Assembly: GCA_963760795.1 (NCBI GenBank)
Contig: CAVXEP010000031.1
Span: 46,493 to 110,492 of the forward strand
Direction: 5' to 3'
Length of the DNA stretch: 64,000 bases
Source of the DNA: an uncultured delta proteobacterium
Lineage (GTDB): Bacteria; Desulfobacterota; Binatia; UBA9968
Every line of letters begins with the position of its first letter. Positions within the stretch are counted from its first letter, which is position 1. Made by a program: the position numbers and the translations under genes. Shown one piece after another: positions 7,527 through 62,046 of this stretch. The notes beneath the pieces are model-generated. The model saw nothing but the letters and a program-made list of their open reading frames with translations, was not told the DNA's origin and made no database searches.

Positions 7527-7651
7527 GCGCGCACCTAACGCTCGACCGCGGAGCGGCCCATCCGTTTCAGGAGTTCGACATCAGTACTCGATCATTTCTC
7601 GGTAGATCAAAACGTTCAAAATGTTTTCGGATGTGCGAGGTTTTGGCTTCC

Positions 7652-7735
7652 GTCATACCGGCGCTGGCTAGTATCGAGTATTTTCCGCGGCCAGAATTGA
7701 GCGCAAGCCTGGATGCCGGCCTACGCCGGCATGAC
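7652..7735. repeat. REP-like inverted pair; single copy also at 14836-14862
   Basis: GTCATACCGGCG ... CTGGATGCCGGCCTACGCCGGCATGAC; second copy CTGGATGCCGGCCTGCGCCGGCATGAC. Confidence 0.7.
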
Positions 7736-7760
7736 AAGTGGTCGGTGTCTACAGTGCCCT

Positions 7761-8960
7761 TTAAGTGATCGGCCTTGCTTTTTCAACGGTGCCAATTGGC
7801 GTGGGAAACACAAATTCCTCGTCGCTCGCATTGTCCAACCCATAGCGGACTAATTCGTTAACATCCAACTTCGCCTCGTCCGCCGTCACTTCATCCAATC
7901 TTGCCTTGGTCGCGGGATGTTTGGGGACGAACAGCTGGCAGCAGTCCTGGTCGGGGACTGACGAAATATCGAAGGTACCGATGCGGCGCGACTGGTCGAC
8001 GATCTCTTGCTTATCCATGCCCACCAACGGGCGCAGGATCGGCATGGCTATCGCTTGTTGAATCACCGTCATGTTTTCTAACGTCTGCGATGCCACTTGG
8101 CCTAAGCTCTCGCCGGTGATGAGCGCTTTGGTTTTTTCTTTTCTGGCGATTTTCTCAGCGATGCGCAGCATCATGCGCCGGTACAGCACCACGCGCAGCG
8201 GACGCGCGACCGCGGCGACGATCTGCCGTTGAATCTCGCCGAAGGGAACCATATAGAGCCGCGATTGAAACTGATGGCGCGTCAACAGCGTGACCAGGTC
8301 GCGCACTTTGTCCTGGGAAGTCCTGTCCTGGTAAGGCGCGCTGTGAAAGTGCACGAAGATCACCCGGCAGCCGCGCTGCATCATGCGGTACGCTGCCACC
8401 GGCGAGTCGAATCCGCCGGAGATCAGTGACATCAGCCTTCCGCTGGCGCCCACCGGCAGGCCGCCGGGGCCGAGCAGTTTGTTGAAACCGAAGAACGCAT
8501 CCTTGGGCAAGACTTCGACGAAAACGGTGAACTCGGGGTTAGTCAGGTCGACTCGCGCGCCGGATTTCTCTTGCACCGCCGCGCCTAATTGGCGATTGAT
8601 CTCCACGGAGTTTAGCGCAAAATTTTTGTCGCCACGCTGGGTGTCGATACGGAAGCTGGTGAATTGGCTGCCATTAATCCCGGTGAGGATTTGCCTGCGC
8701 AATTCGTCGATATCGCGCTCGGTGCGCCGGACTAAAGAGAAATTGGCAATACCGAACACACTGGAAATCCGTTTGATGATAATTTCGGGCGCGATTTCGT
8801 TCCTGAAGTTCAAAAGCAAGCGGGCATGGAGACTGCGGATTTCCTTGGCGCCCAAGTCTTTGACCGAGGCGAGGATGTTGCGCTTGAGCATCTCGGTGAA
8901 GTAAGCCCGGTTGCCCTTTTTGAGGGCGATTTCGTGATAGCGGATCAGAACGGAATCCAT
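7761..8960 (-). CDS. thiI: tRNA 4-thiouridine synthase ThiI (short form, no rhodanese domain)
   Basis: YHEIALKKGNR, THUMP domain, PP-loop SGGFDS, GESLGQVASQT. Confidence 0.95.
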   Translation of the reverse strand: MDSVLIRYHEIALKKGNRAYFTEMLKRNILASVKDLGAKEIRSLHARLLLNFRNEIAPEIIIKRISSVFGIANFSLVRRTERDIDELRRQILTGINGSQFTSFRIDTQRGDKNFALNSVEINRQLGAAVQEKSGARVDLTNPEFTVFVEVLPKDAFFGFNKLLGPGGLPVGASGRLMSLISGGFDSPVAAYRMMQRGCRVIFVHFHSAPYQDRTSQDKVRDLVTLLTRHQFQSRLYMVPFGEIQRQIVAAVARPLRVVLYRRMMLRIAEKIARKEKTKALITGESLGQVASQTLENMTVIQQAIAMPILRPLVGMDKQEIVDQSRRIGTFDISSVPDQDCCQLFVPKHPATKARLDEVTADEAKLDVNELVRYGLDNASDEEFVFPTPIGTVEKARPIT

Positions 8961-9045
8961 GCACGAGAACTAACAGATTCAAGCGGCTTTTGCATGCAAC
9001 CGGCGCTATGGTAGTATCCCCGACAACAATCAAGAGGAGTGAGCG

Positions 9046-9372
9046 ATGAGCAACTTCAAGAAGCTAGCCGATGCCATGAGTTTTTCAGCGGAGAAGATGA
9101 AAAAGAATGGCGTCTTCGAGACCGAGCGATTCTTCTGCGACACCTACTGTTTCGAGCCAGGCCAAGAGCAGAAAGCGCACAGCCACACCCATGAAGACAA
9201 GATCTACTACGTCCTCGAAGGGCGCGGATCCTTCACCGTCGGTGCTGAAGAACGAGAGTTGGGAGCAGGGGAGATCGCCTTGGCGCCCGCCGGCCAGAGC
9301 CACGGTGTCGCCAATCGCAGCCAGGCGCGCCTGGTGACCCTGGTCTTCGTGACGCCCAAACCGCACCATTAA
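9046..9372 (+). CDS. Cupin domain protein
   Basis: HSH...YYVLEG.G and PAGQSHGV cupin motifs; GAGGAG RBS. Confidence 0.85.
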   Translation: MSNFKKLADAMSFSAEKMKKNGVFETERFFCDTYCFEPGQEQKAHSHTHEDKIYYVLEGRGSFTVGAEERELGAGEIALAPAGQSHGVANRSQARLVTLVFVTPKPHH

Positions 9373-9398
9373 ATTCTAGCGAAACGAACCAAGAACTG

Positions 9399-9568
9399 GA
9401 AATTCGAAGCTCAAATCCGAGACTCGAAACAAATTCAAATGATGAAAACCTAAACATCTACAAATGCTCCAAACGGTAAGGATCTCATTTACTGTTTTGG
9501 ATTTTCTGATTGTGAATTTACTTTGGTTGCGGTTTGTTTCGGATTTAGATATTCGAAATTCGGATTTG
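9399..9568. repeat. AT-rich intergenic imperfect inverted repeat with 7-nt periodicity
   Basis: AAATTCGAAGCTCAAATCCGAGACTCGAAACAAA versus TTTGTTTCGGATTTAGATATTCGAAATTCGGATTT. Confidence 0.65.
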
Positions 9569-9594
9569 CCTAAGTTAACCAAACACAAGAAACT

Positions 9595-10017
9595 ATGACA
9601 CCTGAACAAGAAGCGGTGGCGCAAGCCAACCAGAGTTTTTATCGCGCCTTCGAAACTCTCAAGATCGAAGCCATGGAAGCAGTGTGGTCAAAAGACGCCG
9701 ACATTCAATGCGGTCATCCAGGCTGGCGCATTCTGCGCGGCTGGGGCCCGGTGATGGAGAGCTGGAAAAGGATTTTTGAAAATACCCCGGCAGTGCAGTT
9801 CACTTTGACCGACGTGAAGATCGAAGTGCGCGGCGGGCTCGCCTGGGTGACGCTCTATGAAAACTTGAACAGTTCGATCGAAGGTCAGACTTTCTCCGCC
9901 GCCATTCTGACAATCAACATGTTTCAAAAGAGCGCGGACGGCTGGCACATGATCCTGCATCACGGCTCGTCAGTGTCGCAGCCGCCGGATCAGGACGAGA
10001 GTAATACGGTTCACTAG
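9595..10017 (+). CDS. SnoaL/NTF2-like protein
   Basis: ANQSFYRAFE, HPGW and W.M..HH.S motifs. Confidence 0.85.
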   Translation: MTPEQEAVAQANQSFYRAFETLKIEAMEAVWSKDADIQCGHPGWRILRGWGPVMESWKRIFENTPAVQFTLTDVKIEVRGGLAWVTLYENLNSSIEGQTFSAAILTINMFQKSADGWHMILHHGSSVSQPPDQDESNTVH

Positions 10018-10051
10018 AGTTCTCCGTCAGATTCGCCTTAGGCAATTAAAT

Positions 10052-10228
10052 ATGAAAGCTTGGGTCCGACGCACTGCGGGGATTCTCTTCATATTGGCGC
10101 TTTTGGTTGTATTCATGTTCTCGTATCCAAGTCTCTATGACCTGCTCGGCAAGGTCGCGACAATTTCATTGTGGTTCGTGCTGATCTTCGCATGCGAAAT
10201 GTTTTGGAATTATCTCATCGATGAATAG
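10052..10228 (+). CDS. Small two-TM membrane protein (58 aa, below ORF-track cutoff)
   Basis: Translated by hand: MKAWVRRTAGILFILALLVVFMFSYPSLYDLLGKVATISLWFVLIFACEMFWNYLIDE; fills the gap between same-strand genes. Confidence 0.5.
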   Translation: MKAWVRRTAGILFILALLVVFMFSYPSLYDLLGKVATISLWFVLIFACEMFWNYLIDE

Positions 10229-10988: not shown

Positions 10989-11020
10989 ATTGAATCGAAC
11001 GAAGCGTCTTACAGTTCAAT
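10989..11020 (+). repeat. Type-1 ATTGAACTG-armed site, copy A
   Basis: ATTGAATCGAACGAAGCGTCTTACAGTTCAAT; 19/20 identical to 50314-50333. Confidence 0.65.
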
Positions 11021-50305: not shown

Positions 50306-50333
50306 ATGGGACTGAAGCGCCTTACAGTTCAAT
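50306..50333 (+). repeat. Type-1 28-bp site, copy B
   Basis: ATGGGACTGA AGCGCCTT ACAGTTCAAT. Confidence 0.65.
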
Positions 50334-50352
50334 GCTACCGCGCTTTTGACGC

Positions 50353-50553
50353 TTGACTTTGATCAAGCAGGTGCAACAATCTCATCATGGGTTCGTCCCA
50401 GCTCTTGTATGTGCCGGAGTTCAGCAAATCGCCCCGGCCGAAGCGCAGTTCAAGACTCAGACCGTGGACTACAAACACGCGGACACCGCGTTGGAGGGTT
50501 ACCTGGCTTATGACGCCACCGGCACCGGCAAGCCGCCCGGTGTTCGCCTGTAG
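50353..50553 (+). pseudogene. N-terminal fragment of a dienelactone-hydrolase-family protein
   Basis: TQTVDYKHADTALEGYLAYD...GKPPGV, then stops. Confidence 0.6.
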
Positions 50554-50661
50554 CATAGCGGCGGTAGCCGATAAGGAAATGGTTTCGAGTTATGCCGGAC
50601 CAACTCATAGGGCACGCTCGCAGCTTAGGTCAAGTATCAGTGTTTAGAAGCGAATACGGCA

Positions 50662-50984
50662 AAGAGTCTCTCAGAAAGGGAGGGTGAATTAGATGGAGCT
50701 GTTGAAACGTTTGTCAATCGACGAAGATGGTCAAGGTCTCGTTGAGTACACTTTGATCGTGGTCTTGGTGGCGCTCGTTTTTTGGGTCGCCGTTAAGAAT
50801 ACTAACATTGCTAATGGATTGTCGAGTGGTTGGAGCAAGGTTACGGCTTGCGTTGGCTCGACCTCAACTTGCGATTCGGCATCCTAGTTCTACAACTTTT
50901 CTGCGCATTGATGGCACCGGTAACTTCTTGCTGTCAATTCGCATTGAGACGATCCAATAGCCACTCAGCGGAGAGATAACCGTG
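50662..50984 (+). repeat. ~320-bp Flp-pilin unit, copy 1 (copy 2 at 51791-52112)
   Basis: Shared RBS region, pilin gene and ~100-nt downstream hairpin region. Confidence 0.9.
50693..50887 (+). CDS. flp: Flp/Fap (type IVc/Tad) pilin
   Basis: G|QGLVEY prepilin motif, hydrophobic helix, C-x6-C tail. Confidence 0.9.
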   Translation: MELLKRLSIDEDGQGLVEYTLIVVLVALVFWVAVKNTNIANGLSSGWSKVTACVGSTSTCDSAS

Positions 50985-50986
50985 AA

Positions 50987-51003
50987 ATTGAACTGAATTC
51001 TCC
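50987..51003 (+). repeat. Type-2 site ATTGAACTGAATTCTCC
   Basis: Exact reverse complement at 56632-56648; begins 2 nt after the Flp-unit homology ends. Confidence 0.6.
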
Positions 51004-51173
51004 ATCAGATTCAAATCGCCCGACGCATCGTTGGACTATTCGATGTGCGATTAGGTATCAAAGCGCCGCAATACATTCGGGAGAGTCGTTCTGCGGATTA
51101 TTCACTGACTTGGAAACCTCGTAGCCGTCCATCAACTCGGCGGGCAGAATCGGCAATTTCCAGAGGTAAAGAG

Positions 51174-51199
51174 TGGCGTCCCCGACGGGATTTGAACCC
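51174..51199 (-). mobile_element. att scar: 26-bp copy of the tRNA-Glu 3' end
   Basis: TGGCGTCCCCGACGGGATTTGAACCC, identical to 59714-59739. Confidence 0.9.
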
Positions 51200-51328
51200 A
51201 TAAAGCCATCTTCTCGTAAGCTCCAGCATCTTCCAACTATCCGAAATTACTACAAAGAGAAAATGCGCAAAGTCGGCTAAGTTCCGCCTTCGTGCAACAT
51301 CTATCGTGAAGTATTCGAGAAGTGACGG

Positions 51329-51613
51329 TTGAAAGTTGCGTTACCCATGATCGATGACGAGATTTCATCCGCTCCGCCTTCACAAAAGACACCAGCACCA
51401 CCGCTAAAGGGCGAAAGGCGAGCCCTCAAGCATGGGCTTACCACCATGAAGCAAGCACTTTCGGCGACGCAAAAGTCTTACTTTTGTGCTGTGACTAGGC
51501 TAGCCAAATATCATAAGAAAGCACCGGATCAGCTCAGCAAGGAGGACATTCGAGCTTGTGTATTTGACGAAAACGGGCGCCGAGCCCAAAGCGCGACAGC
51601 GGCCATGGGGTGA
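51329..51613 (+). pseudogene. Fragment containing a phage-integrase N-terminal SAM-like domain
   Basis: SATQKSYFCAVTRLAKYHKKAPDQLSKEDIRA. Confidence 0.6.
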
Positions 51614-51820
51614 AAACCTGATAGATTTACTCGTGAAAGGTAAGATACAACGAGCGTAAACAGCCCATGAAGATCGAATACAGGGGTTATTGTATCGAAG
51701 TCACAGCAAAGCCAATGGACGGTTTTTGGGCAGCAGACATTTGAATTTGGACGTTAAATCAAAAGATGACGCCCATAAACGACTGGGCGGAAGAGTCTCT
51801 AAGAAAGGGGGTGAATTTAG

Positions 51821-52015
51821 ATGGAGCTGTTGAAACGTTTGTTAGTCGAAGAAGATGGTCAAGGTCTCGTTGAGTACACTTTGATCGTGGTTTTGGTGGC
51901 GCTCGTTTTTTGGGTCGCCGTTAAGAATAGTGATATTGGTAATGGATTGTCGAGTGGTTGGAGTAAGGTAACGGCGTGTGTTGGTACGCCCTCAAGTTGC
52001 GATTCGGCATCCTAG
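51821..52015 (+). CDS. flp: Flp/Fap pilin, variant copy
   Basis: 55/64 aa identical to 50693..50887. Confidence 0.9.
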   Translation: MELLKRLLVEEDGQGLVEYTLIVVLVALVFWVAVKNSDIGNGLSSGWSKVTACVGTPSSCDSAS

Positions 52016-52152
52016 TTCTACATCTTTCCTGCGCATTGATGGCAAGGGTAACTCTTTGCTGTCAATTCGCATCGACACGACTCAATAGCCACTCAGCGGA
52101 GCGATAGCCGTGTAAAAAAAATCGACTTATGGCGTGTAACCATTGAAAAGAA

Positions 52153-52196
52153 TGGCGCGCCTGGAGGGACTTGAACCCCCAACCCTCAGATTCGTA
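52153..52196 (-). mobile_element. att scar: 3' half of a tRNA-Arg(ACG)
   Basis: Reverse complement TACGAATCTGAGGGTTGGGGGTTCAAGTCCCTCCAGGCGCGCCA (anticodon loop to CCA); differs from tRNA-Arg(TCG) at 41135. Confidence 0.85.
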
Positions 52197-52279
52197 CAAG
52201 ATCACGGTGCCGGTGCCGGGTGATCTTATAGGCGCTGTTCAAGCCACCATTGAACCGGTGCTGGACCCCGTATAAACAA

Positions 52280-53655
52280 GATTATTCACCCACTGACCGT
52301 CATCGACAAGCTGATCAAGAAAAACGAGCTAGCGCCTCGCCTTCGACTTCGACAAAGACGGCCGGCTGCCATGGGACACAATCATTTACAGCTGCATCAA
52401 AAAGAGCGGTAAAACTACGCTCAACGGCGCCATCACGCTGGCATGGGGCTTCACTCAGGAAGCGCCCAACGAAATCTTGATCCTCGCCAACGACCTTGAG
52501 CAAACCCTCGCCCGTGTGTTCAAGACCATGGAAGGCATCATCCAGCACAATCCCGAACTCAAGCGCGAAGCCGAGGTGCAGGCCCGCAATATCTACCTTG
52601 CCAACGGCACAACGGCGACGGCTATCAGTGGCGACTACCAGGGCGCCGCGGGCTCTAACCATGGCTTTGTTGGCTATGACGAATTGTGGGGCTACACCAG
52701 CGAAGCATCAACCCGCCTATGGGAAGAGTTAACACCGGTTCCCACCCGCAAGAACTCAATCCGGTTCATTACCACCTATGCCGGCTTCGAGGGTGAGTCA
52801 AAACTGCTTTGGGATTTATATAAGCAGGTCGTTAGTCCGGATGAGCACCCCGAGGGTTAGGGCGAGCGGCTGCACCCAGACTTACCGATCTTCGGCAATC
52901 GCGAAGCCAGGATCTTCGCCTACTGGGACCATGAACCGCGCATGGCCTGGCAGACCCAAGAGCATTACCAGAGCCAGAAGAAAACCCTGCGGCCTGGAAC
53001 CTATCTTCGCCTGCATGAAAACAAGTGGGCGACTGCCGAGGAAGTCTTTATCACGCCGGAAATGTGGGACCCGTGCGTCAATCAGTTGCACCGCCCGAGC
53101 ATAACCGACCGTGAGCGGCTTTTTGTTGGCGTGGACGCCGGCATCAAGCACGACAATGCGGCGCGCGTGGCGGTGCGCTGGGATGAAGCCGGCGAGAAGT
53201 TGATACTTGTCAGCCATCGAATCTGGAAGCCCACGCCAAGCCAGCCCTTGGACCTGGAAAACACCGTTGAAGAGGACCTGCGAAGCCTAAACGATCAAGG
53301 CGACGTGATGGAAATACTCGCCGATCCTTACCAGATGCACCGATCCATCACCACGCTACAGGCGGCCGGCTTGCCGATCCGCGAGTTTGCCCAGACTCAA
53401 GCCAATTGCACTTTGATGGGTCAGACGCTCTTCGATCTACTCAGCGGGCAAAATATAGACATCTACCCTAGCGACGATTTGAGACAACAAGCATTGGCGA
53501 CGATAGCGGTTGAGAATCCCCGCGGCTGGCGGATCGCCAAAGAGAAGGCATCGAAGAAAATCGACGCTATTGTCGCGCTGGCAATGGCGAGTGTTGCAGC
53601 CATGGCCCACGGGGGCGAGATCGGTAGCCGTGCGGCGAGGGGGTTTAACTTGTAG
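52280..53655 (+). pseudogene. Phage terminase large subunit remnant (in-frame TAG at 52858-52860, damaged 5' end)
   Basis: YSCIKKSGKTT Walker A, VGYDE Walker B, ITTYAG; RNase H-like VGVDAG and KKIDAIVALAMA; ORFs 52477 and 52942 share one frame. Confidence 0.85.
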
Positions 53656-53765
53656 GCGCATGCCCCACGGAAGCCATCGCGCCAGTCCGCGGACCTGTCT
53701 ACATTGGCCAGACGTTCGAGCTTCCGGCAACGGTTATCTGCCAGTCAGACCATGGCACCATCACC

Positions 53766-54302
53766 GTGCTTGCCGCTTTCGCCAGCGAGCAGATGAGCCT
53801 AAGACGCCATATCGAAACCATTGTGAAGCCGTGGCTAACGGCCAACGCGCCGTGGGTGTTTTCAAATCGCCGGTTAGTGTTGGGCATTGTCGAGGAAATA
53901 GATACCGATGCACAAAATGAGTTTGCGCAGACGCTTAACACGGCGTTGGGCGGCAGTTGGGATCCGGCTTGCCACCCCTGGGAGACCCGCAAGGATTCAA
54001 TGCTTGACGTATTTGGCAAGGTACAGCCATTCACGATAAAGCCGGCGCTTCAGATCAATCGAACCGAAGCGCGACTCTTGGTTGAAGCCCTAAGCGGCCG
54101 GTGGAGCTATGAGCAAGACAGACGCGAGACAAGCGCACCGTTTGGCACTACATCGCCAATGCGTTCTCGCTGTGCGTCGATCGGATCGACCCTGGTGCGC
54201 CGCCACCATTGCCGGAGTTTAAAGCTGTTTGGGCTCGATTTGACCCGAGGCGAGTTACTGGAGCGAGGCAACGGTAAATTTGGTGGAAGCCGGGGGAATT
54301 GA
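53766..54302 (+). CDS. Hypothetical protein downstream of the terminase (probably frameshifted)
   Basis: Protein-like ORF on the same strand; no motif recognised. Confidence 0.4.
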   Translation: MLAAFASEQMSLRRHIETIVKPWLTANAPWVFSNRRLVLGIVEEIDTDAQNEFAQTLNTALGGSWDPACHPWETRKDSMLDVFGKVQPFTIKPALQINRTEARLLVEALSGRWSYEQDRRETSAPFGTTSPMRSRCASIGSTLVRRHHCRSLKLFGLDLTRGELLERGNGKFGGSRGN

Positions 54303-54655
54303 CGCCGGAGAGGGCGCCACAATTGCCTGCGGTAGATGAAAACATCATTATATTCTACGTTAAAAAGCTTATTCTATCAATTTTTTACGTTCTAAAAAGT
54401 TTCTACCATGGTAGTATTATTAAGATCGTTGGTTCAGCATTAATGATTCTATTTTCTACGTTAAAAAATGGTCTGTTCGCTAGGGCACCCGAGGAAAAAC
54501 CCATCCCTGTAAAATATTGCCCGGCGGTAAAAAATTCCAGCGGGTCAACGCGATCAATTTATGGAAAGCAAACGCCTGGTTGTTGATCGAGTTTTTTGGC
54601 ACCGACCCGGCTATCGGTCACATCGTCGGCATCGAACTAGGAAAGGTAATTTGAA

Positions 54656-54901
54656 ATGGAATATTATCTTGACATAGCGCCTAAGATTTTACTTTGGGCA
54701 ACCGTTATCATTATCCTTGCGCCGGTCATTGTAGCACTCGGAGCATTCCTACTGGTTACTTCCATTTTCGTTTACGCATATATCGGCTCAATTATTTTCG
54801 AAATTATCCAAGAGAGCGTTAGAAATGCCAAGAGAAAAATAAACAAAAACGAGTTCACCATCCACATCAGCGGTGGCCCCATCTCGCCACATATCGGATG
54901 A
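54656..54901 (+). CDS. Small AT-rich membrane protein
   Basis: 81 aa with a long hydrophobic segment; AAAGG RBS. Confidence 0.45.
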   Translation: MEYYLDIAPKILLWATVIIILAPVIVALGAFLLVTSIFVYAYIGSIIFEIIQESVRNAKRKINKNEFTIHISGGPISPHIG

Positions 54902-55063
54902 ATCCGACGCGGCCCCTAAGACGGACATTGAAAGAATCCGGCCTCCTGGCTCGGCAAGTAGAGTCGGCCTCGGCGCCGCTCCGTTGCAAACCCCCTTGGG
55001 GTCAGAGTGACGCCTTACTCTTAAAGAATAGACATTTGACGATTACGCGGTAGAATATTTTCT

Positions 55064-55567
55064 GTGAATAATATGAGAAAGGGCCGTCCACCGAAATTTC
55101 AAGAACCGCGCCGGCCCGTCACCGTGACTCTTCCTGAAAGCACACTCGCGAAGCTCGCGGCTATCAATCCTGACCGTGCGCAGGCGATCGTAAAGGCGAC
55201 CCATGCGGCGATGCCGCGTAAGGCGAACGGTCATAAACGGGTTGAGCTAGTCGAAGTCATGCCAGGGCTAGGCGTGCTTATCGTTGGACCTAGCCGTTAT
55301 CTGCAAAAGATCAAATGGCTTCGATTGGTGGAGCTGGCACCGATGCGCTATCTGCTGGTGGTCCCCTCGGGCACCGCAATCGATTCTCTCGAGGTAGCCA
55401 TTATCGATCTGCTCGAAAACCTCGACCCGGGCGAGGAGTGGGAAAAGGGCACCCTGGAGCAGCTCAGGGACATGATGCGCACCTTGCGGCTCGGCGGCAA
55501 ACTCTCAAAGGCGGAGCTCATGTTCATCGACACAACAACGATGAAGGGTTCAGGTCTTGTTGCTTGA
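55064..55567 (+). CDS. Hypothetical protein with RHH-like N-terminus
   Basis: GRPPKF...PVTVTLPESTLAKL; TAGACA-16-TAGAAT promoter-like sequence upstream. Confidence 0.65.
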   Translation: MNNMRKGRPPKFQEPRRPVTVTLPESTLAKLAAINPDRAQAIVKATHAAMPRKANGHKRVELVEVMPGLGVLIVGPSRYLQKIKWLRLVELAPMRYLLVVPSGTAIDSLEVAIIDLLENLDPGEEWEKGTLEQLRDMMRTLRLGGKLSKAELMFIDTTTMKGSGLVA

Positions 55568-55933
55568 CAGGCATCGCCTTGACAACGGTGCCCGCGTGAG
55601 GCCCAACAATCTTTGCAAATTTTCAATTATTAGCGTCGTGAGCTCGTAGAATCGATGCGGTAGCCGGCGCCAAGTGGATGCCCATGTTTGAACAGTCGTA
55701 AAACACAATGACTATTGCCGCTATTACTCCGAAAAGGCCAAACAGAAGTATTGGGGTACATCAATCCTCCCTTTGTTTGATCCCAATCGGCCCGAACAAG
55801 ATTTTCAAACTTCAGGCCGTCTATATTTTTGCCCCCTATCGCTGATGCGGTTTGATTGCAAGGGCAACCCCGGATGTTCGCGAGCCCCCCGTTCTGGTCG
55901 GTGTCTCTATTCGCGTAGAGCCCGGCCGCTTTT

Positions 55934-56484
55934 TTACTTCGGTCTCTTCGTTCCTCGCTTCTTTTTCGCCTCAGCTATTTTACTCGCTGACCGTTTCTTT
56001 TTTCTGGCGCGATATTCTCTTGCCATCACTACATTTGCACATTTCCTTGAACAATAGTTCGGCGTTCCCTTGCGTGGCTTCCGCATTGGAACAAAACAGG
56101 TATCGCAGTTTGCGCAGTGTAGGAAATCACCTTGCGTAATATCCGACATGAACAATATGAAGGTGGGGCTGCAAATACTTGGCTGGGAAAATCCTTGCTG
56201 CGGAACTGGTAAAAGAATCGTCCGGTTTCGGGGTCGGTGTCGAGGAGCAGTGTTTCCATCTTGATTGGAAATTCGTGTCGTCCCACGTTTTGATCAAGGT
56301 GTCGCTTTAGTTCGTGCTGAGCGATCTTGAGTCCATCTGGCGTTGCCGCTCTGGCGAAGTCACTCTCTTTATTCGATCGGTCTCGCCGCAAGTTGTACAA
56401 TGCGATGTGAAGATCATCGAGGAGTTTTTCGCGCTTACCGTTTGTCATTGTCCATGGTTCGACGTTTGCAAATCGAAGCAACAC
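55934..56484 (-). CDS. CGNR-type zinc-finger protein (frameshift near 56160)
   Basis: CANCDTCF...YCSRKC.N.....YRARKK at the C-terminus; N-terminus in ORF 56029..56484. Confidence 0.65.
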
Positions 56485-56584
56485 CTTGAGGCGGGGGATA
56501 TAACTTTTCGCCTCTGGGAGTAAGGTGATTTACGGCGTGAGGCGACAGGTATTCGTCGATGGGGAAGAGCAGCTTCAGCCTGAG

Positions 56585-56648
56585 ATTGAACCGAACGACG
56601 CTTCAGTTCGATCATGTAGGACTGCTTTGTAGGAGAATTCAGTTCAAT
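56585..56648 (-). repeat. Adjacent type-1 (56585-56612) and type-2 (56616-56648) sites
   Basis: ATTGAACCGA ACGACGCT TCAGTTCGAT cat GTAGGACTGC TTTGTAGGAGAAT TCAGTTCAAT. Confidence 0.65.
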
Positions 56649-56666
56649 CCTGGCATCGCCGCATGG

Positions 56667-56795
56667 TTACTTAATCACCTTATCCGCCCTTGCCAGCACG
56701 TTCGGCGGATTCGTCAGGCCGATCTGCTTCGCCGTTTTTATATTAATCACCAACTCGAATTTTGTCGGTTGCTCGACCGGTAGGTCGGCAGGCTT
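56667..56795 (-). pseudogene. C-terminal remnant of an ABC_sub_bind (DUF534-type) protein
   Basis: Translated by hand: [42 protein letters not shown]. Confidence 0.85.
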
Positions 56796-56854
56796 GGATC
56801 AATTTGTAAGATTTGTAAGAATGGCTGGGGTTTCTTATGGAACGACGCCGCGGA

Positions 56855-57466
56855 TCATTTGGTTTTCCCCGAAGAAGCGGCGCTCTCTTTGGCGAGACGC
56901 GCACGGGTCTCCATTAGGACTTTTCCGAGCAGATTCTCCCCCTCGCCTCGATAAACGCCCCAAATCTTATCGCCCCACCAATTTGTCTCCTCGAGGTAGC
57001 GGTCTCCCGTCGCCAAAAGTTTTCTTGCAAGCTCAGGATTCTGCGAGTGTTTCGCCCATACCACCTCGCGCATCGTCCGCATCTCGCTCGCCTCCCAAGC
57101 CGCTCTGTCATAGCGCTTGGCGCGAGAGAGTTTCCTCGCCGGGTCGGCTTCGAGCTTCGTGAACACATCGCGGTCAGCCTCTGGATATTTCCCCGACTGA
57201 TAGGCCGCCTCCGCCGAGCCGTAGACTCGGCCCTCCCACTCGACGCGGCAGGGGAAATAGTTGCTCAGCCAGCGATACTCGGCGACGAACCCCCCGATTT
57301 TCCTAGCATCGTGGACAACGCCCTCGAATTTGTCATCCCAGTTGAGTTTCTTCGCTATCGCGGCGGTAGCGGACGCTGCCGGTAGGGCAGGCGCCTTAGC
57401 CAGGATCAGTGCGGTAGCAATAATGAGGAACAGCAACGAAAGCAATGGTGAGCAAGAATGTTTCAT
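56855..57466 (-). CDS. NADAR (YbiA-like) protein with N-terminal signal peptide
   Basis: LSNY, SAEAAYQSGK, LLATG, E...GDKIWG, GENLLGKVLME; MKH + hydrophobic leader. Confidence 0.88.
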   Translation of the reverse strand: MKHSCSPLLSLLFLIIATALILAKAPALPAASATAAIAKKLNWDDKFEGVVHDARKIGGFVAEYRWLSNYFPCRVEWEGRVYGSAEAAYQSGKYPEADRDVFTKLEADPARKLSRAKRYDRAAWEASEMRTMREVVWAKHSQNPELARKLLATGDRYLEETNWWGDKIWGVYRGEGENLLGKVLMETRARLAKESAASSGKTK

Positions 57467-59013
57467 GATGAAGCGACGAATAGCAAATTTAAACATCTTC
57501 CTGCAACGAAACTAAGCGAGCATGCGATAGGATCTCGTGACTTGCACGTAAAGACCGAGTTGAGGTCATGGCGCGTTCCGACGATGCTTCGGGGACCATC
57601 CCTGGATTCGAGTTCAGTTGCGTTGATCAGCGATCGGACGTGCCGGTTCTGGGGTGTTCCGCGTTGCGGAACATCTTCCGGCACCTTCGCGTTTTTCAAT
57701 ATCCCCTGCGCTCTGAAGACGTTCAAAAAGAAGTTTTGGCGTAGCTTTGCCGTGTCGGCAATCGTCTCTTCCGCCGCTTCAAGCGTCACGTGAATGTCGG
57801 TGACACCCACAGCCACGTTATCGGTCACCAAAACCGCGGCATAAACGTCAGTTTCAGCGCCGCGAGGCGAGGCGTGAATGGCGTCGATAACGTGATAGAG
57901 CTCTTGGTCGACCGTATTCACTCGTCGGCTCTTGATGCGCTTGGCCCATTCGGTTGTTTCCACCACCACGCTTTCAACCGACGCGTGAGTGGATTGCAGG
58001 CGGACAAGACCCACGGCCCGATTGCGAACCAGGTGAACAAGAACGCCTTGCCTTTTTTCTCTGGGGAACGGGTCGCCGTTCATGACGCTCGTCGGTGCCA
58101 CGATCTTGCCGACCCACTCGGGCGCATCGATGGCGCCGGCGCTGCCCAGGAAGGTCACCAGCGGACGAGAATCGGGAGAGCATTCATAGATCGCTTCGAT
58201 GAGATCTCCGGAACGGCTGGCAAAAATCCGGTTGCCGTTGATCGAGATTAAGAGCACCTTCTTGCCGTTGACGTTCGGGTACCAGAGCGCTCGCAATGAT
58301 TCGTCCGAGAAGGTCTCCGGCCGTTCAAAACCCATTTTGCCCAACAGCAAACTTGCATCACTCATGAACCCAATGACGACAGTATCGGGATTGCGAATGC
58401 CGTATTTCTTGAAGAAGGTAAGATATTCGCTGCTAGGAGATACGGCAGACATGAACACTTTGAGCGATTTGCTGAACGATGGCAGGCGCAGACGATGCCT
58501 GCGCTTCATGTCTTCGTCGGCGAATTTTGCCATGTAAAGGAGCCGAATGATGGTTTTCAAAGCTACTTCTCTACCGTTCTGCCCAATGAGGATATAATCC
58601 CACTTGCCGCCATCGAGTCGCCCCGCGAACACGCGAATCTCGCCGGTTTCTTGGTCTTTCTTGAGCGGTATCACGGAGCGATATTGACCCCGTATGTGAG
58701 CACGCACGTCAGCCTCCAACCCGCCGTAGAACAACACCCTTTCCGCGCCCAGAAAGAGTTCCTGATACTCACCGAAACGCCTGAAGCCGTACCATTTCTG
58801 ATCGAATACCGCTCCCTCGCGTTGGTTTTTCTCGATGAGTCGTTGCGCATGGTCAACGATTTCGTGGGTTTGGTCTTCGAATGATACCTCCCGCGGGGGC
58901 GCGGCGCTTTGGATCTCGTTGCTGATGGGCTCAACAACTTCGGGTCCCAGGCTACATGAGAGCGTAAGCCCAAGACTTACGATAGCGAAAATGCTGACAA
59001 GTCGTCGGTTCAT
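57463..59013 (-). CDS. Lipoprotein with C-terminal nucleoside-phosphorylase (PNP/UDP)-like domain
   Basis: MNRR...LTLSC lipobox; FLGSAGAI, ET..W, VDQE and LVTDN resemble NP-I motifs; ATGA overlap with the NADAR gene. Confidence 0.65.
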   Translation of the reverse strand: MNRRLVSIFAIVSLGLTLSCSLGPEVVEPISNEIQSAAPPREVSFEDQTHEIVDHAQRLIEKNQREGAVFDQKWYGFRRFGEYQELFLGAERVLFYGGLEADVRAHIRGQYRSVIPLKKDQETGEIRVFAGRLDGGKWDYILIGQNGREVALKTIIRLLYMAKFADEDMKRRHRLRLPSFSKSLKVFMSAVSPSSEYLTFFKKYGIRNPDTVVIGFMSDASLLLGKMGFERPETFSDESLRALWYPNVNGKKVLLISINGNRIFASRSGDLIEAIYECSPDSRPLVTFLGSAGAIDAPEWVGKIVAPTSVMNGDPFPREKRQGVLVHLVRNRAVGLVRLQSTHASVESVVVETTEWAKRIKSRRVNTVDQELYHVIDAIHASPRGAETDVYAAVLVTDNVAVGVTDIHVTLEAAEETIADTAKLRQNFFLNVFRAQGILKNAKVPEDVPQRGTPQNRHVRSLINATELESRDGPRSIVGTRHDLNSVFTCKSRDPIACSLSFVAGRCLNLLFVASS

Positions 59014-59286
59014 TTTATGTTCAAACAAACTGGCCATTTCGCCTGCACAATTGCCGGTAACATTGATTTTAAGCCTTGCCCGACGCCACCCGGTGAGACC
59101 TAAAGGCAAGAGCAATGCCAGGGACAGGAGCTACAGAGGATGCAAGGCAAGGTAAAGATTTAACTGAGAAAGTTTCGGTAGTGGGCTTTGGAGACCCAAG
59201 GCCTGGCGTAAACAAAGTAGTCATCTGACTACGCGGGTACAAATCGATTCAGTGGAGAAGCGTGGAAGAATGAAATTCGCGGTAGG

Positions 59287-59314
59287 ATTGAACTGTACGA
59301 TGCTACAATTCAAT
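59287..59314 (-). repeat. Type-1 28-bp site, copy D
   Basis: ATTGAACTGT ACGATGCT ACAATTCAAT (10-bp arms, 8-bp spacer). Confidence 0.65.
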
Positions 59315-59352: not shown

Positions 59353-59658
59353 TTGGACGGAATGAAAAAGCATCGGGTAACTGAAAGCGATTATTTTTTC
59401 ATCAACAAAGAGGGCGCGCCGATCGATCCGGATCAGTGGCGCAAAGACTACTGGTATAAGGCGCTGCGAGCGCTGGGTATCCGGGAGCGTAAGTTTTACA
59501 ACACCAGGCACACGTTCATCAGCTTGGCGCTAACTGCGGGCGAAAATCTGAAGGGCATCGCCGAGCACTGCGGGACGTCGGTGATCATGATCGAAAATAA
59601 TTATGGGCGATACATGCGCGCCGACTGGCGATCGCTTTATGGAGTTCAGCAAGGGTAA
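59353..59658 (+). pseudogene. C-terminal remnant of a tyrosine integrase
   Basis: YNTRHTFIS...IAEHCGTS..MIENNYG; directly beside tRNA-Glu. Confidence 0.85.
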
Positions 59659-59713: not shown

Positions 59714-59791
59714 TGGCGTCCCCGACGGGATTTGAACCCGTGTTATCGGCGTGAAAGGCCGGTGTCCTGGGCCGAGCTAGACGACGGGGAC
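59714..59791 (-). tRNA. tRNA-Glu (TTC)
   Basis: Reverse complement GTCCCCGTCGTCTAG...CTTTCAC...GGGGACGCCA. Confidence 0.95.
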
Positions 59792-59795
59792 GAAC

Positions 59796-59871
59796 TGGTG
59801 AGCCGTGCTGGATTCGAACCAGCGACCCTCTGCTTAAAAGGCAGATGCTCTACCGCCTGAGCTAACGGCTC
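59796..59871 (-). tRNA. tRNA-Lys (TTT)
   Basis: Reverse complement GAGCCGTTAGCTCAG...CTTTTAA...CGGCTCACCA. Confidence 0.95.
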
Positions 59872-61751: not shown

Positions 61752-61933
61752 ATCTCACCACGAAGTTCGCGAAGGTTTCGCTTAATCATTATTTCGAACT
61801 TCGTGATCTTCGTACTATTATCCCTGGTAATTTGCGTGGCTCGCACAAATTGTCCGAGCGCCAAATCCAAGAGGGCGGGTTTCAAACCCGCCCTTACCAA
61901 TCCCGATTTGCGCCCTTGCGTTCTTTGCGGCCA
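61752..61933. repeat. Cluster of intergenic palindromes including REP-like AGGGCGGGTTTCAAACCCGCCCT
   Basis: CACGAAGTTCG/CGAACTTCGTG; GGGCGGGTTT/AAACCCGCCC; CTTTGCGGC arm. Confidence 0.7.
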
Positions 61934-62046
61934 TTCTTCAATTCGGTCGCGGCTTTGCCGCGCTAGGTCGTGGTGAATACCGTCCTCGATTCGCAGGTTG
62001 CGGCATTGGCGAACTACAGCCTTCGCGGTGGATTCGAATTCCTTCA

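Follow-up and report, generated by a model that had tools for sequence, protein, structure and literature searches.

Two conserved 28-nt site types as candidate core sites of a modular recombination system in a genus of soil Binatia

Short conserved dyads recur between genes in a 64,000-nt stretch of DNA from an uncultured delta proteobacterium (Bacteria; Desulfobacterota; Binatia; UBA9968), here called the window (assembly GCA_963760795.1, contig CAVXEP010000031.1, positions 46,493 to 110,492), and in related genomes they stand in ordered arrays with diverse genes between them. The dyads belong to two types of 28-nt site, T1 and T2, which join through a variable stretch of ~20 nt (V) into one composite unit. 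We consider it probable that T1 and T2 are the core-type sites of a site-specific system for recombining modules, one that this genus shares with related soil bacteria, and we favour a cassette system, similar to dif modules or to integrons, with a dedicated recombinase. The evidence comes from the architecture of the sites, their order in arrays, the positions at which similar sequences part and a Xer-like recombinase gene found between paired sites.

The source genome of the window, G000, has 6.58 Mb in an assembly that is 88.9% complete, and its closest relative, G019, is ~93% identical in the collinear part. Genus tallies of units, recombinase genes and dif sites cover 31 genomes and take in G004, which has one unit match and two dif matches; nothing here depends on that genome alone. 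Public sequencing runs were represented by assembled contigs only, in which at most 38% of the sampled words were present.

Two site types and the composite unit

All six sites that a preliminary description of the window had reported were present where it had placed them when the sequence was read directly. Their geometry, which it gave as a dyad of 10+8+10, is better described as 11-6-11, since the site logos show a strong outer arm that both types share, a conserved 6-nt spacer specific to each type and a weaker inner arm. The T1 logo reads ATTGAACTGAA-CGACGC-tTCAnT.. and the T2 logo ATTGAAcTGaA-TTCTCC-atCaA.., with the outer arm given as ATTGAACTGAA for both types. The preliminary description also placed the two sites at 56.6 kb 3 nt apart; by its own coordinates the gap is 19 nt (56613-56631), and the two sites make up one composite unit.

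The sites exceed chance expectation in the window, in its genome and in the genus. The 9-mer ATTGAACTG, allowing at most one mismatch, occurs 24 times in the window where 12.2 are expected, and none of 100 shuffles got to 24. Weight matrices of 28 nt, for which 46 T1 and 53 T2 sites from other genomes were used, gave 4 T1 and 12 T2 sites over the whole of G000 and none in the reversed sequence that served as control. Four of these 16 matrix sites lie in the window (T1 at 56585 and 59287; T2 at 50987 on the plus strand and at 56648 on the minus strand), while two further T1 copies (50306-50333 and 10994-11020) fall under the matrix threshold and are degenerate. Across 41 related genomes a core 13-mer occurs 59 times, compared with 4 times for its reversed control. 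A covariance model of the composite unit found it in 25 of the 31 genus genomes, at 0-67 copies per genome, with 13 in G000 and 67 in G017.

Read in the sense of the upstream gene, T2, V and the inverted T1 form one imperfect palindrome of ~70 nt, of which T1 and T2 are the halves and in which the outer arms (AGGATTGAACTGAA and its complement) are able to pair. When 28 units are aligned, hardly any variation shows in either arm or either spacer, and the variable part is the centre. RNAalifold recovered only the 9-bp outer stem, with no compensatory change among the 9 predicted pairs, and in single-strand folding the full unit was mildly more stable than shuffles (z -2.0 and -1.2), with the solo sites no more stable than these. 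As folding supports the outer stem alone and without compensatory change, what is conserved is the sequence, as expected of protein-binding sites. At gathering score, Rfam gave four tRNAs only in the window, and a search of 56540-56700 at E up to 10 returned one chance snoRNA.

Two variants of this arrangement were seen. Mini-units of ~30-35 nt have outer arms just 12-16 nt apart (G000 C9:104199; L012 613; L035 1503; L026 1480). Several solo T2 sites are followed ~25 nt on by ..GTCCGAG(T)TTTGxCGAGAAC.. instead of V and T1, which may be another recurrent module start (G000 C12:441215 on the minus strand and C32:68962 on the plus strand; L014 154; L041 15836 on the minus strand).

Arrays and the junctions of similar sequences

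Copies of the unit are clustered, and the arrays repeat a pattern of cargo gene, T2, V, inverted T1 and next cargo gene. Because of this pattern each cargo has an inverted T1 before it and a T2 behind it, whose outer arms face the cargo. Within an array, T1 sites are direct repeats of one another, and so are T2 sites. The units are spaced roughly 0.7-4.5 kb apart on long contigs of up to ~2 Mb (G018:C13). In five array contigs every unit is on one strand among the matches listed (Table 1; 121 further matches lie outside that list). The cargo is diverse, including ABC_sub_bind, TENA/THI-4, a GH65-HAD fusion, a response regulator, methyltransferases and MgtC.

The position of the sites was most closely followed around the ABC_sub_bind genes, comparing 7 genes in five array loci (L039-L043) with 34 paralogues elsewhere in G000. 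An inverted T1 lies 54-78 nt upstream of all seven array genes and a T2 lies 7-56 nt downstream of four of them, and not one of the 34 paralogues has a T1 or T2. The array proteins are just 45-56% identical to the query copy in L039, whereas the sites are nearly invariant. As the sites keep their position around these genes, the order T1, cargo, T2 can be taken as a rule, and the preliminary description, which had read this order along cargo transcription in two units of the window, was right for the arrays of congeners in general. Since the 34 paralogues lack them, the sites are not a general regulatory feature of the ABC_sub_bind family.

These same distances are what would support a regulatory reading, with T1 as operator or promoter and T2 as a terminator-like element of co-regulated genes under a dimeric transcription factor. 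The T1 dyad does stand at a roughly fixed distance upstream of starts, as the preliminary description expected of transcription-factor boxes, and T2 stands just past stops. However, the paralogues outside arrays are without sites, no T run follows the stem, solo sites occur next to truncated genes, the sites coincide with homology breakpoints, and they flank a recombinase gene in all 31 testable metagenome loci. We find this reading barely credible.

Breakpoints were studied in 15 segment pairs of at least 88% identity among array loci, and 7 of them end within 10 nt of a site edge. One pair (L041/L095; 1524 nt, 99.3% identity) opens at the outer arm of a T1 and stops in the spacer of the following direct T1, 7-9 nt in. 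Another (L039/L040; 914 nt, 98.4%) begins at a T2 arm and finishes at an inverted-T1 arm; before it stand two different, paralogous ABC_sub_bind C-terminal fragments, and after it unrelated DNA. Three contigs (L148, L149 and L151) have a recombinase element in common (99.6-99.7%) and an identical left flank (100%) with differing right flanks, and L149 changes partner inside the T1 spacer. In the window, the homology of one Flp gene (Flp copy A) to a second (Flp copy B) and to G019 runs to the first base of the T2 outer arm and no further, which bears out to the base the earlier statement that the T2 at 50987 starts where Flp homology ends.

Contigs of public runs either stop in the T1 at 50306-50333 or run across it. 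In contigs of runs X1 and X8, from two studies, the T1 at 59307 passes through 23 V-like letters to position 56629 onward, i.e., into T2. This joint indicates that elsewhere the 2.7-kb NADAR module of the window has a full unit at that end; it may reflect a circle, a tandem copy, a collapsed repeat or identical flanking units.

In 4 of the 5 copies aligned, an IS91-family element (Y2_Tnp and Zn_Tnp_IS91) interrupts the spacer of a T1 or T2 and lies immediately ahead of (G/A)TTC. It was seen at L041 ~7590-10105 (G017:C23), G017:C18 and G013:C14, with a 299-aa integrase-family gene upstream. Its placement is read as a target preference, and the element not as the mobilising enzyme.

A linked Xer-like recombinase and a proposed mechanism

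One genome of the genus, G018, carries a frameshifted XerC/D-like gene between a T2 and an inverted T1, and its stop codon abuts the inverted T1. The preliminary description left the recombinase of its modules without a name; a candidate exists elsewhere, and none was found in G000. Homologues with 86-93% identity occur in genomes of four other species (Candidatus Binatia, 'uncultured delta proteobacterium' and one Pyrinomonadaceae assembly). Including G018, a T2 lies upstream of the recombinase in 5 of 5 cases, and in 4 of 5 the stop codon is followed at once by an inverted T1. The link recurs in metagenomes, where 72 loci gave 36 near-full matches after 36 partial ones were dropped. Among these, an inverted T1 follows 26-35 nt past the match in 31 of 31 testable loci, a T2 lies 74-88 nt upstream of the recombinase in 22 of 34, and both sites are present in 20 of 29. 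The element, composed of T2, the recombinase gene and the inverted T1 (~1.01 kb), measures 1009-1018 bp from arm to arm in 23 of 24 cases. Two loci have two recombinase elements each, 2.1 kb apart with a methyltransferase gene between; the paired copies read as close paralogues in translation, which makes this look like a one-recombinase system.

The 301-aa protein P0001 has a SAM-like and a catalytic domain, which is the architecture of simple Xer-like tyrosine recombinases, and its closest solved structure is XerD (1a0p, E 2.3e-38). It lies under the NCBIfam equivalog cut-offs for XerC (201.6 vs 335.15), XerD (201.5 vs 329.6) and XerA (195.5 vs 220), reaches 65 bits on the IntI model against a cut-off of 265, and is weakly similar to tyrosine-type DNA invertases (51 bits vs a cut-off of 222). 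At least 983 relatives were found in the protein collection at E 1e-20 or better, many of them on contigs of ~1.0-1.1 kb.

The proposed recombinase would bind T1 and T2, exchange strands within the spacer and pair sites that have the same spacer, and the unlike spacers would keep T1 and T2 from recombining together. Recombination between direct T1 sites, or between direct T2 sites, would excise or integrate a pair of cargo and V as a circular intermediate, which could re-enter at any site of the same type. The V position can hold the 301-aa recombinase gene instead, and the strong arms face the cargo and the weak arms V or the recombinase; a circle of cargo and recombinase would be the self-sufficient form. 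A single cargo would change places when two arrays recombine first at one type of site and then at the other (T1xT1 and T2xT2), a route also proposed for dif modules.

The unit and the recombinase element both have a T2 as their left end and an inverted T1 as their right end. Such shared ends would also be expected of a selfish miniature element, similar to miniature inverted-repeat transposable elements (MITEs) or repetitive extragenic palindromes (REPs), whose terminal inverted repeats would be ~14-16 bp long. Its autonomous parent would be the 1-kb recombinase element, the cargo would be immobile, and arrays and mosaics would arise through preferential insertion near existing copies and RecA-dependent recombination. 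The stem of at least 9 bp formed by the outer arms, copy numbers of 0-67 among congeners, the many homologues on ~1.0-1.1 kb contigs, as for a multicopy repeat, and the frequent breaks of contigs at sites all agree with such an element. The uniform orientation in five array contigs (among the matches listed) and the fixed distances of T1 and T2 from cargo start and stop codons do not, and a tyrosine recombinase cannot excise inverted ends by simple recombination. Inverted ends are present; the full-length copy encodes a tyrosine recombinase and not the DDE transposase of an insertion sequence (IS). No target-site duplication was seen in the few flanks read by eye, where no systematic test was made. 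The unit as an internal-deletion derivative of the recombinase element was rejected, as V is unlike the leader of the recombinase (mean best local score 6.29, compared with 6.32 for shuffles). We regard the miniature element as unlikely.

The unit is similar to REPs and their REPIN doublets in being a doublet of inverted short palindromes with a ~70-nt hairpin in intergenic DNA, and about half of the T1 sides have a GTAG-like head, whereas the units here are clustered, co-oriented and linked to an integrase-family tyrosine recombinase. Mobilisation by a REP-associated transposase (RAYT) was tried and rejected, 10 of the 12 Y1_Tnp loci in G000, G017 and G018 being without a unit within ~1.5 kb.

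A second alternative concerns what the recombinase does, i.e., that it flips its own gene or cargo to switch expression, as in phase variation or a shufflon, and that module mobility is secondary. The layout of a 1-kb recombinase gene between inverted sites recalls the Salmonella hin segment, and T1 and T2 are always inverted to each other around cargo and recombinase gene. Some array cargo genes lie on the opposite strand, and the weak similarity of the recombinase to tyrosine-type DNA invertases points the same way. However, an invertible segment has inverted repeats with matching crossover regions, and the inverted partners here have different conserved spacers (CGACGC and TTCTCC), which by established tyrosine-recombinase behaviour should block complete exchange. 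Furthermore, same-type sites are direct repeats in arrays, and no contig pair with both orientations of one cargo was found, though no systematic search was made. We regard an inversion system as unlikely too.

Several observations weigh against modular site-specific recombination. Firstly, 8 of the 15 segment pairs end away from sites, four of these eight being an IS copy and tandem repeats. Secondly, the V region of the L039/L040 pair differs by a 5-nt indel and several substitutions where the rest is ~98% identical, a pattern not expected from one clean event at a specific site. Homologous recombination between identical repeat segments of 25 nt could also have produced the junctions, and the sites would then mark only where similarity ends. 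The joint from 59307 to 56629 rests on assembled contigs and may be a collapsed repeat instead of a circle. As regards the recombinase, 12 of 34 loci carry another conserved upstream sequence in place of T2, within the genus the gene was found in G018 only, as a pseudogene, and no cognate recombinase was found in G000 (best match 30% identity) or in G017, which has 67 units. Incomplete assemblies or separate ~1-kb contigs may hide it, but its absence still counts against the reading. Solo sites and mini-units are not predicted in detail.

Clustering of ORFs within ~1.5 kb of units, as a search for a recurring recombinase, gave only ABC_sub_bind genes and shadow frames. The alternative upstream sequence, ..CTGGCGAACCGGCCTGCCGGACAG.., was seen in L155, L160, L162, L164-L166, L168, L170, L171, L176, L189 and L192, and may be a third site type belonging to a recombinase sub-family.

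Known systems and the remnants in the window

The integron is one system with which co-oriented arrays have to be compared. The boxes of its attC sites, R''/R', read RYYYAAC / GTTRRRY, and attC is conserved mainly as a folded structure. Integrons and integrase-less attC clusters are similar to the arrays here in their co-oriented, mostly single-gene layout, in an imperfect-palindromic site after the ORF and in their diverse cargo, and a tyrosine recombinase of the simple (CB+CAT) type takes part in both. The units could then be unusual attC sites of a cluster without integrase, served in trans by the integron integrases of the genus. The site lies close behind each ORF, the unit ends have the minimal AAC...GTT (ATTGAAC deviating at position 4), and three of the four relatives tested (G013, G014 and G018) have a true IntI at 445-468 bits against a cut-off of 265, compared with 0 of 14 control genomes. 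However, the real integrons of the genus carry other, classical attC sites (CTAAC...GTTAGGC ends) beside those intI genes, and no unit occurs in the fetched intI flanks of ~8 to 30 kb on either side. G000, whose best match is 94 bits against the TIGR02249 cut-off of 265, and G017 are without IntI, yet hold 13 and 67 units. Each half of the unit is a dyad core site of its own, arms and spacers keep their sequence with no compensatory pairs, the low IntI score of the linked recombinase fits poorly, and the recombinase gene lies inside the unit, not at the head of the array beside attI. We judge attC sites to be highly unlikely. Hardly any classical attC came out of a crude scan of the array loci, a weak scan that also missed known attC sites in L059.

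Two observations belong beside this comparison. An attC-like stretch at L039 18280-18350, seen by eye, failed the crude attC scan. The intI loci L057, L059, L060 and L061 (of G018, G013 and G014) contain 3-5 tandem 9-bp repeats GTTCAAnnC in blocks ~0.8 kb apart, alongside classical attC.

In the R64 shufflon and in Hin the recombinase gene lies next to or inside a segment with inverted sites. The shufflon, whose Rci is noted in PMC8138268, and the Hin segment resemble the system here in that their sites are several and asymmetric, one arm being conserved and the other weak. Shufflon sites lie in one gene and allow inversion only, whereas the sites here are intergenic, stand around whole unrelated cargo genes and include same-type direct repeats. 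That source describes XerT of Helicobacter islands and the integrase of phage Brujita as simple Xer-like recombinases carried by mobile elements (PMC8138268). The recombinase here is similarly carried by the element it would act for; those islands and that phage are large with one integration site, unlike the ~1 kb element of a gene and two heterotypic sites within module arrays.

The dif modules (pdif) of Acinetobacter Rep_3 plasmids share with the arrays 28-bp 11-6-11 sites, inverse orientation and two alternating module types (PMC13141974). That source describes rearrangement between identical or near-identical spacers and proposes that a pair of C and D modules moves by excision and integration, or one module by cointegration and then resolution at another pair (PMC13141974). 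The differences are several: the sites here do not resemble the host dif and have two fixed spacer classes, the second module type is usually only ~20 nt, the arrays lie on long contigs of soil bacteria and not on small plasmids, and a dedicated single Xer-like recombinase is encoded between paired sites where dif modules use host XerC/XerD. A candidate chromosomal dif of G000 (C16:207077-207104) reads AGTTTACATAA-TATATC-TTATCAGACCT, and at three mismatches or fewer such a candidate occurs in 22 of the 31 genus genomes (once in 20 of them and twice in G004 and G019; control 0). Host XerCD was considered as the enzyme and rejected, as the outer arm of T1 and T2 and the XerD arm presumed for the genus dif agree at just 6 of 11 positions. 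The preliminary description had held that the sites are neither dif nor classical attC, and these comparisons agree. Its pdif-like mobile modules stand insofar as the sites behave as recombination junctions and their architecture parallels Acinetobacter dif modules, with the amendment that T1 and T2 are halves of one unit.

A broader claim can be advanced only tentatively, and we hold it a little short of probable. It is that the system may be a third independent gene-cassette platform beside integrons and dif modules, with one self-encoded Xer-like recombinase, two heterospecific 28-bp sites and chromosomal single-gene arrays in soil Binatia-like bacteria, i.e., a natural form of recombinase-mediated cassette exchange in which the recombinase gene is itself a module and circles are self-mobilising. 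No such system turned up in the literature searched, and the recombinase might find its place in the subgroup tables of PMC8138268. If the claim is true, cassette-style gene capture is not limited to integrons (IntI and folded attC) or to Acinetobacter plasmids (host XerCD and pdif), and arrays of as many as eight modules or more in uncultured soil bacteria would be organised by a compact recombinase from another Xer-like lineage, which uses two orthogonal duplex sites. This would provide a new marker for accessory-gene arrays in metagenomes and account in part for how ABC_sub_bind genes expanded and decayed into mosaics in these genomes. A small single-protein recombinase with two natural heterospecific sites would also be of interest to genome engineers.

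For the window alone the meaning is modest. Related genomes hold the arrays; the window, in which the preliminary description saw a possible cassette system, has eroded remnants and no active-looking array. Its inventory comprises a single complete unit, along with three T1 and one T2 that stand alone, beside truncated genes (Table 1), and these copies are probably orphaned and partly decayed products of module recombination events. As orphaned scars, the sites would explain genes that are truncated and patched together.

Table 1. Sites, cargo and context features of the window, with co-oriented arrays of related genomes (unit counts among the matches listed)
Feature	Location	Strand	Evidence
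Solo T1, degenerate, 1-nt deletion, intergenic	10994..11020	-	Covariance model 12.6 bits, E 0.73
Solo T1, degenerate, upstream end of mosaic Flp unit	50306..50333	-	Covariance model 11.9 bits, E 1.1
Mosaic cargo: ORF 50353-50553 (without Pfam match), then Flp copy A (ORF 50693-50887)	50334..50986	+	Flp copy A: Flp_Fap E 4.2e-4, under cut-off
Solo T2, 28 nt	50987..51014	+	Matrix score 37.3, 0 control matches; covariance model 19.3 bits, E 0.014, span 50981-51050
Copy of tRNA-Glu 3' end (of 59714-59739), 26 bp exact; one border of ~8.5-kb island	51174..51199		blastn 100%/26 nt
Complete composite unit; on minus strand T2 (56648 to 56621), V, inverted T1 (+ at 56585-56612)	56579..56654	-	Covariance model 85 bits, E 2.4e-19; matrix scores T1 41.8, T2 42.4
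ABC_sub_bind C-terminal fragment, 43 codons, stops 21 nt short of T2	56670..56798	-	PF04392 profile positions 253-293 of 293, E 1e-5
Cargo lying between the unit and the T1 at 59287: ORF 56855-57496 with a NADAR domain, 550-aa ORF 57463-59115	56855..59115	-	NADAR domain E 1.1e-20
Solo T1	59287..59314	+	Matrix score 37.2; covariance model 23.4 bits, E 0.0012
Phage-type integrase remnant, weak; context, outside the site system	59353..59658	+	Phage_integrase E 0.0034, 17.6 bits, under cut-off, profile positions 90-165
Array	G018:C11		8/8 units on one strand
Array	G017:C5		7/7 units on one strand
Array	G017:C21		6/6 units on one strand
Array	G043:C54		6/6 units on one strand
Array	G017:C12		5/5 units on one strand

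The truncated genes that the preliminary description noticed near the sites are there, i.e., the ABC_sub_bind fragment and an N-terminally truncated SRAP gene. Its labels CGNR and PNP found no Pfam support at E up to 1, and the 550-aa ORF likewise matches no Pfam family at E up to 1. The Flp unit is a mosaic in which 50662-50987 is ~90% identical to 51791-52115, which is Flp copy B. A dienelactone-hydrolase fragment considered at 50353-50553 was rejected, having no Pfam support. The solo T1 at 10994 is absent from G019, but the intergenic region there aligns too poorly to define an insertion.

The sites between 50 and 60 kb lie in a variable island (44-59.7 kb of the window) that is not collinear with G019, and collinearity starts only at tRNA-Glu/tRNA-Lys, where tRNA genes occupy 59714-59871. 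The exact 26-bp copy of the tRNA-Glu 3' end is, judged from this match, the putative mark of an old integration border, and a terminase-nuclease fragment (52942-53655) and the weak integrase remnant of Table 1, which adjoins tRNA-Glu and tRNA-Lys, lie inside the island. The ~8.5 kb bracketed by this 26-bp direct repeat looks like an old integrative element or a prophage scar. On the 3' side of Flp copy B there is a tRNA-like 3' end (minus strand, ~52140-52200) that gave no ARAGORN call, and G019 has the same. At 61755-61990 of the window, a repeat of ~200 nt, with at least 30 copies (~80% identity) in G019 and several in G022, is unrelated to T1/T2 and may be another miniature element.

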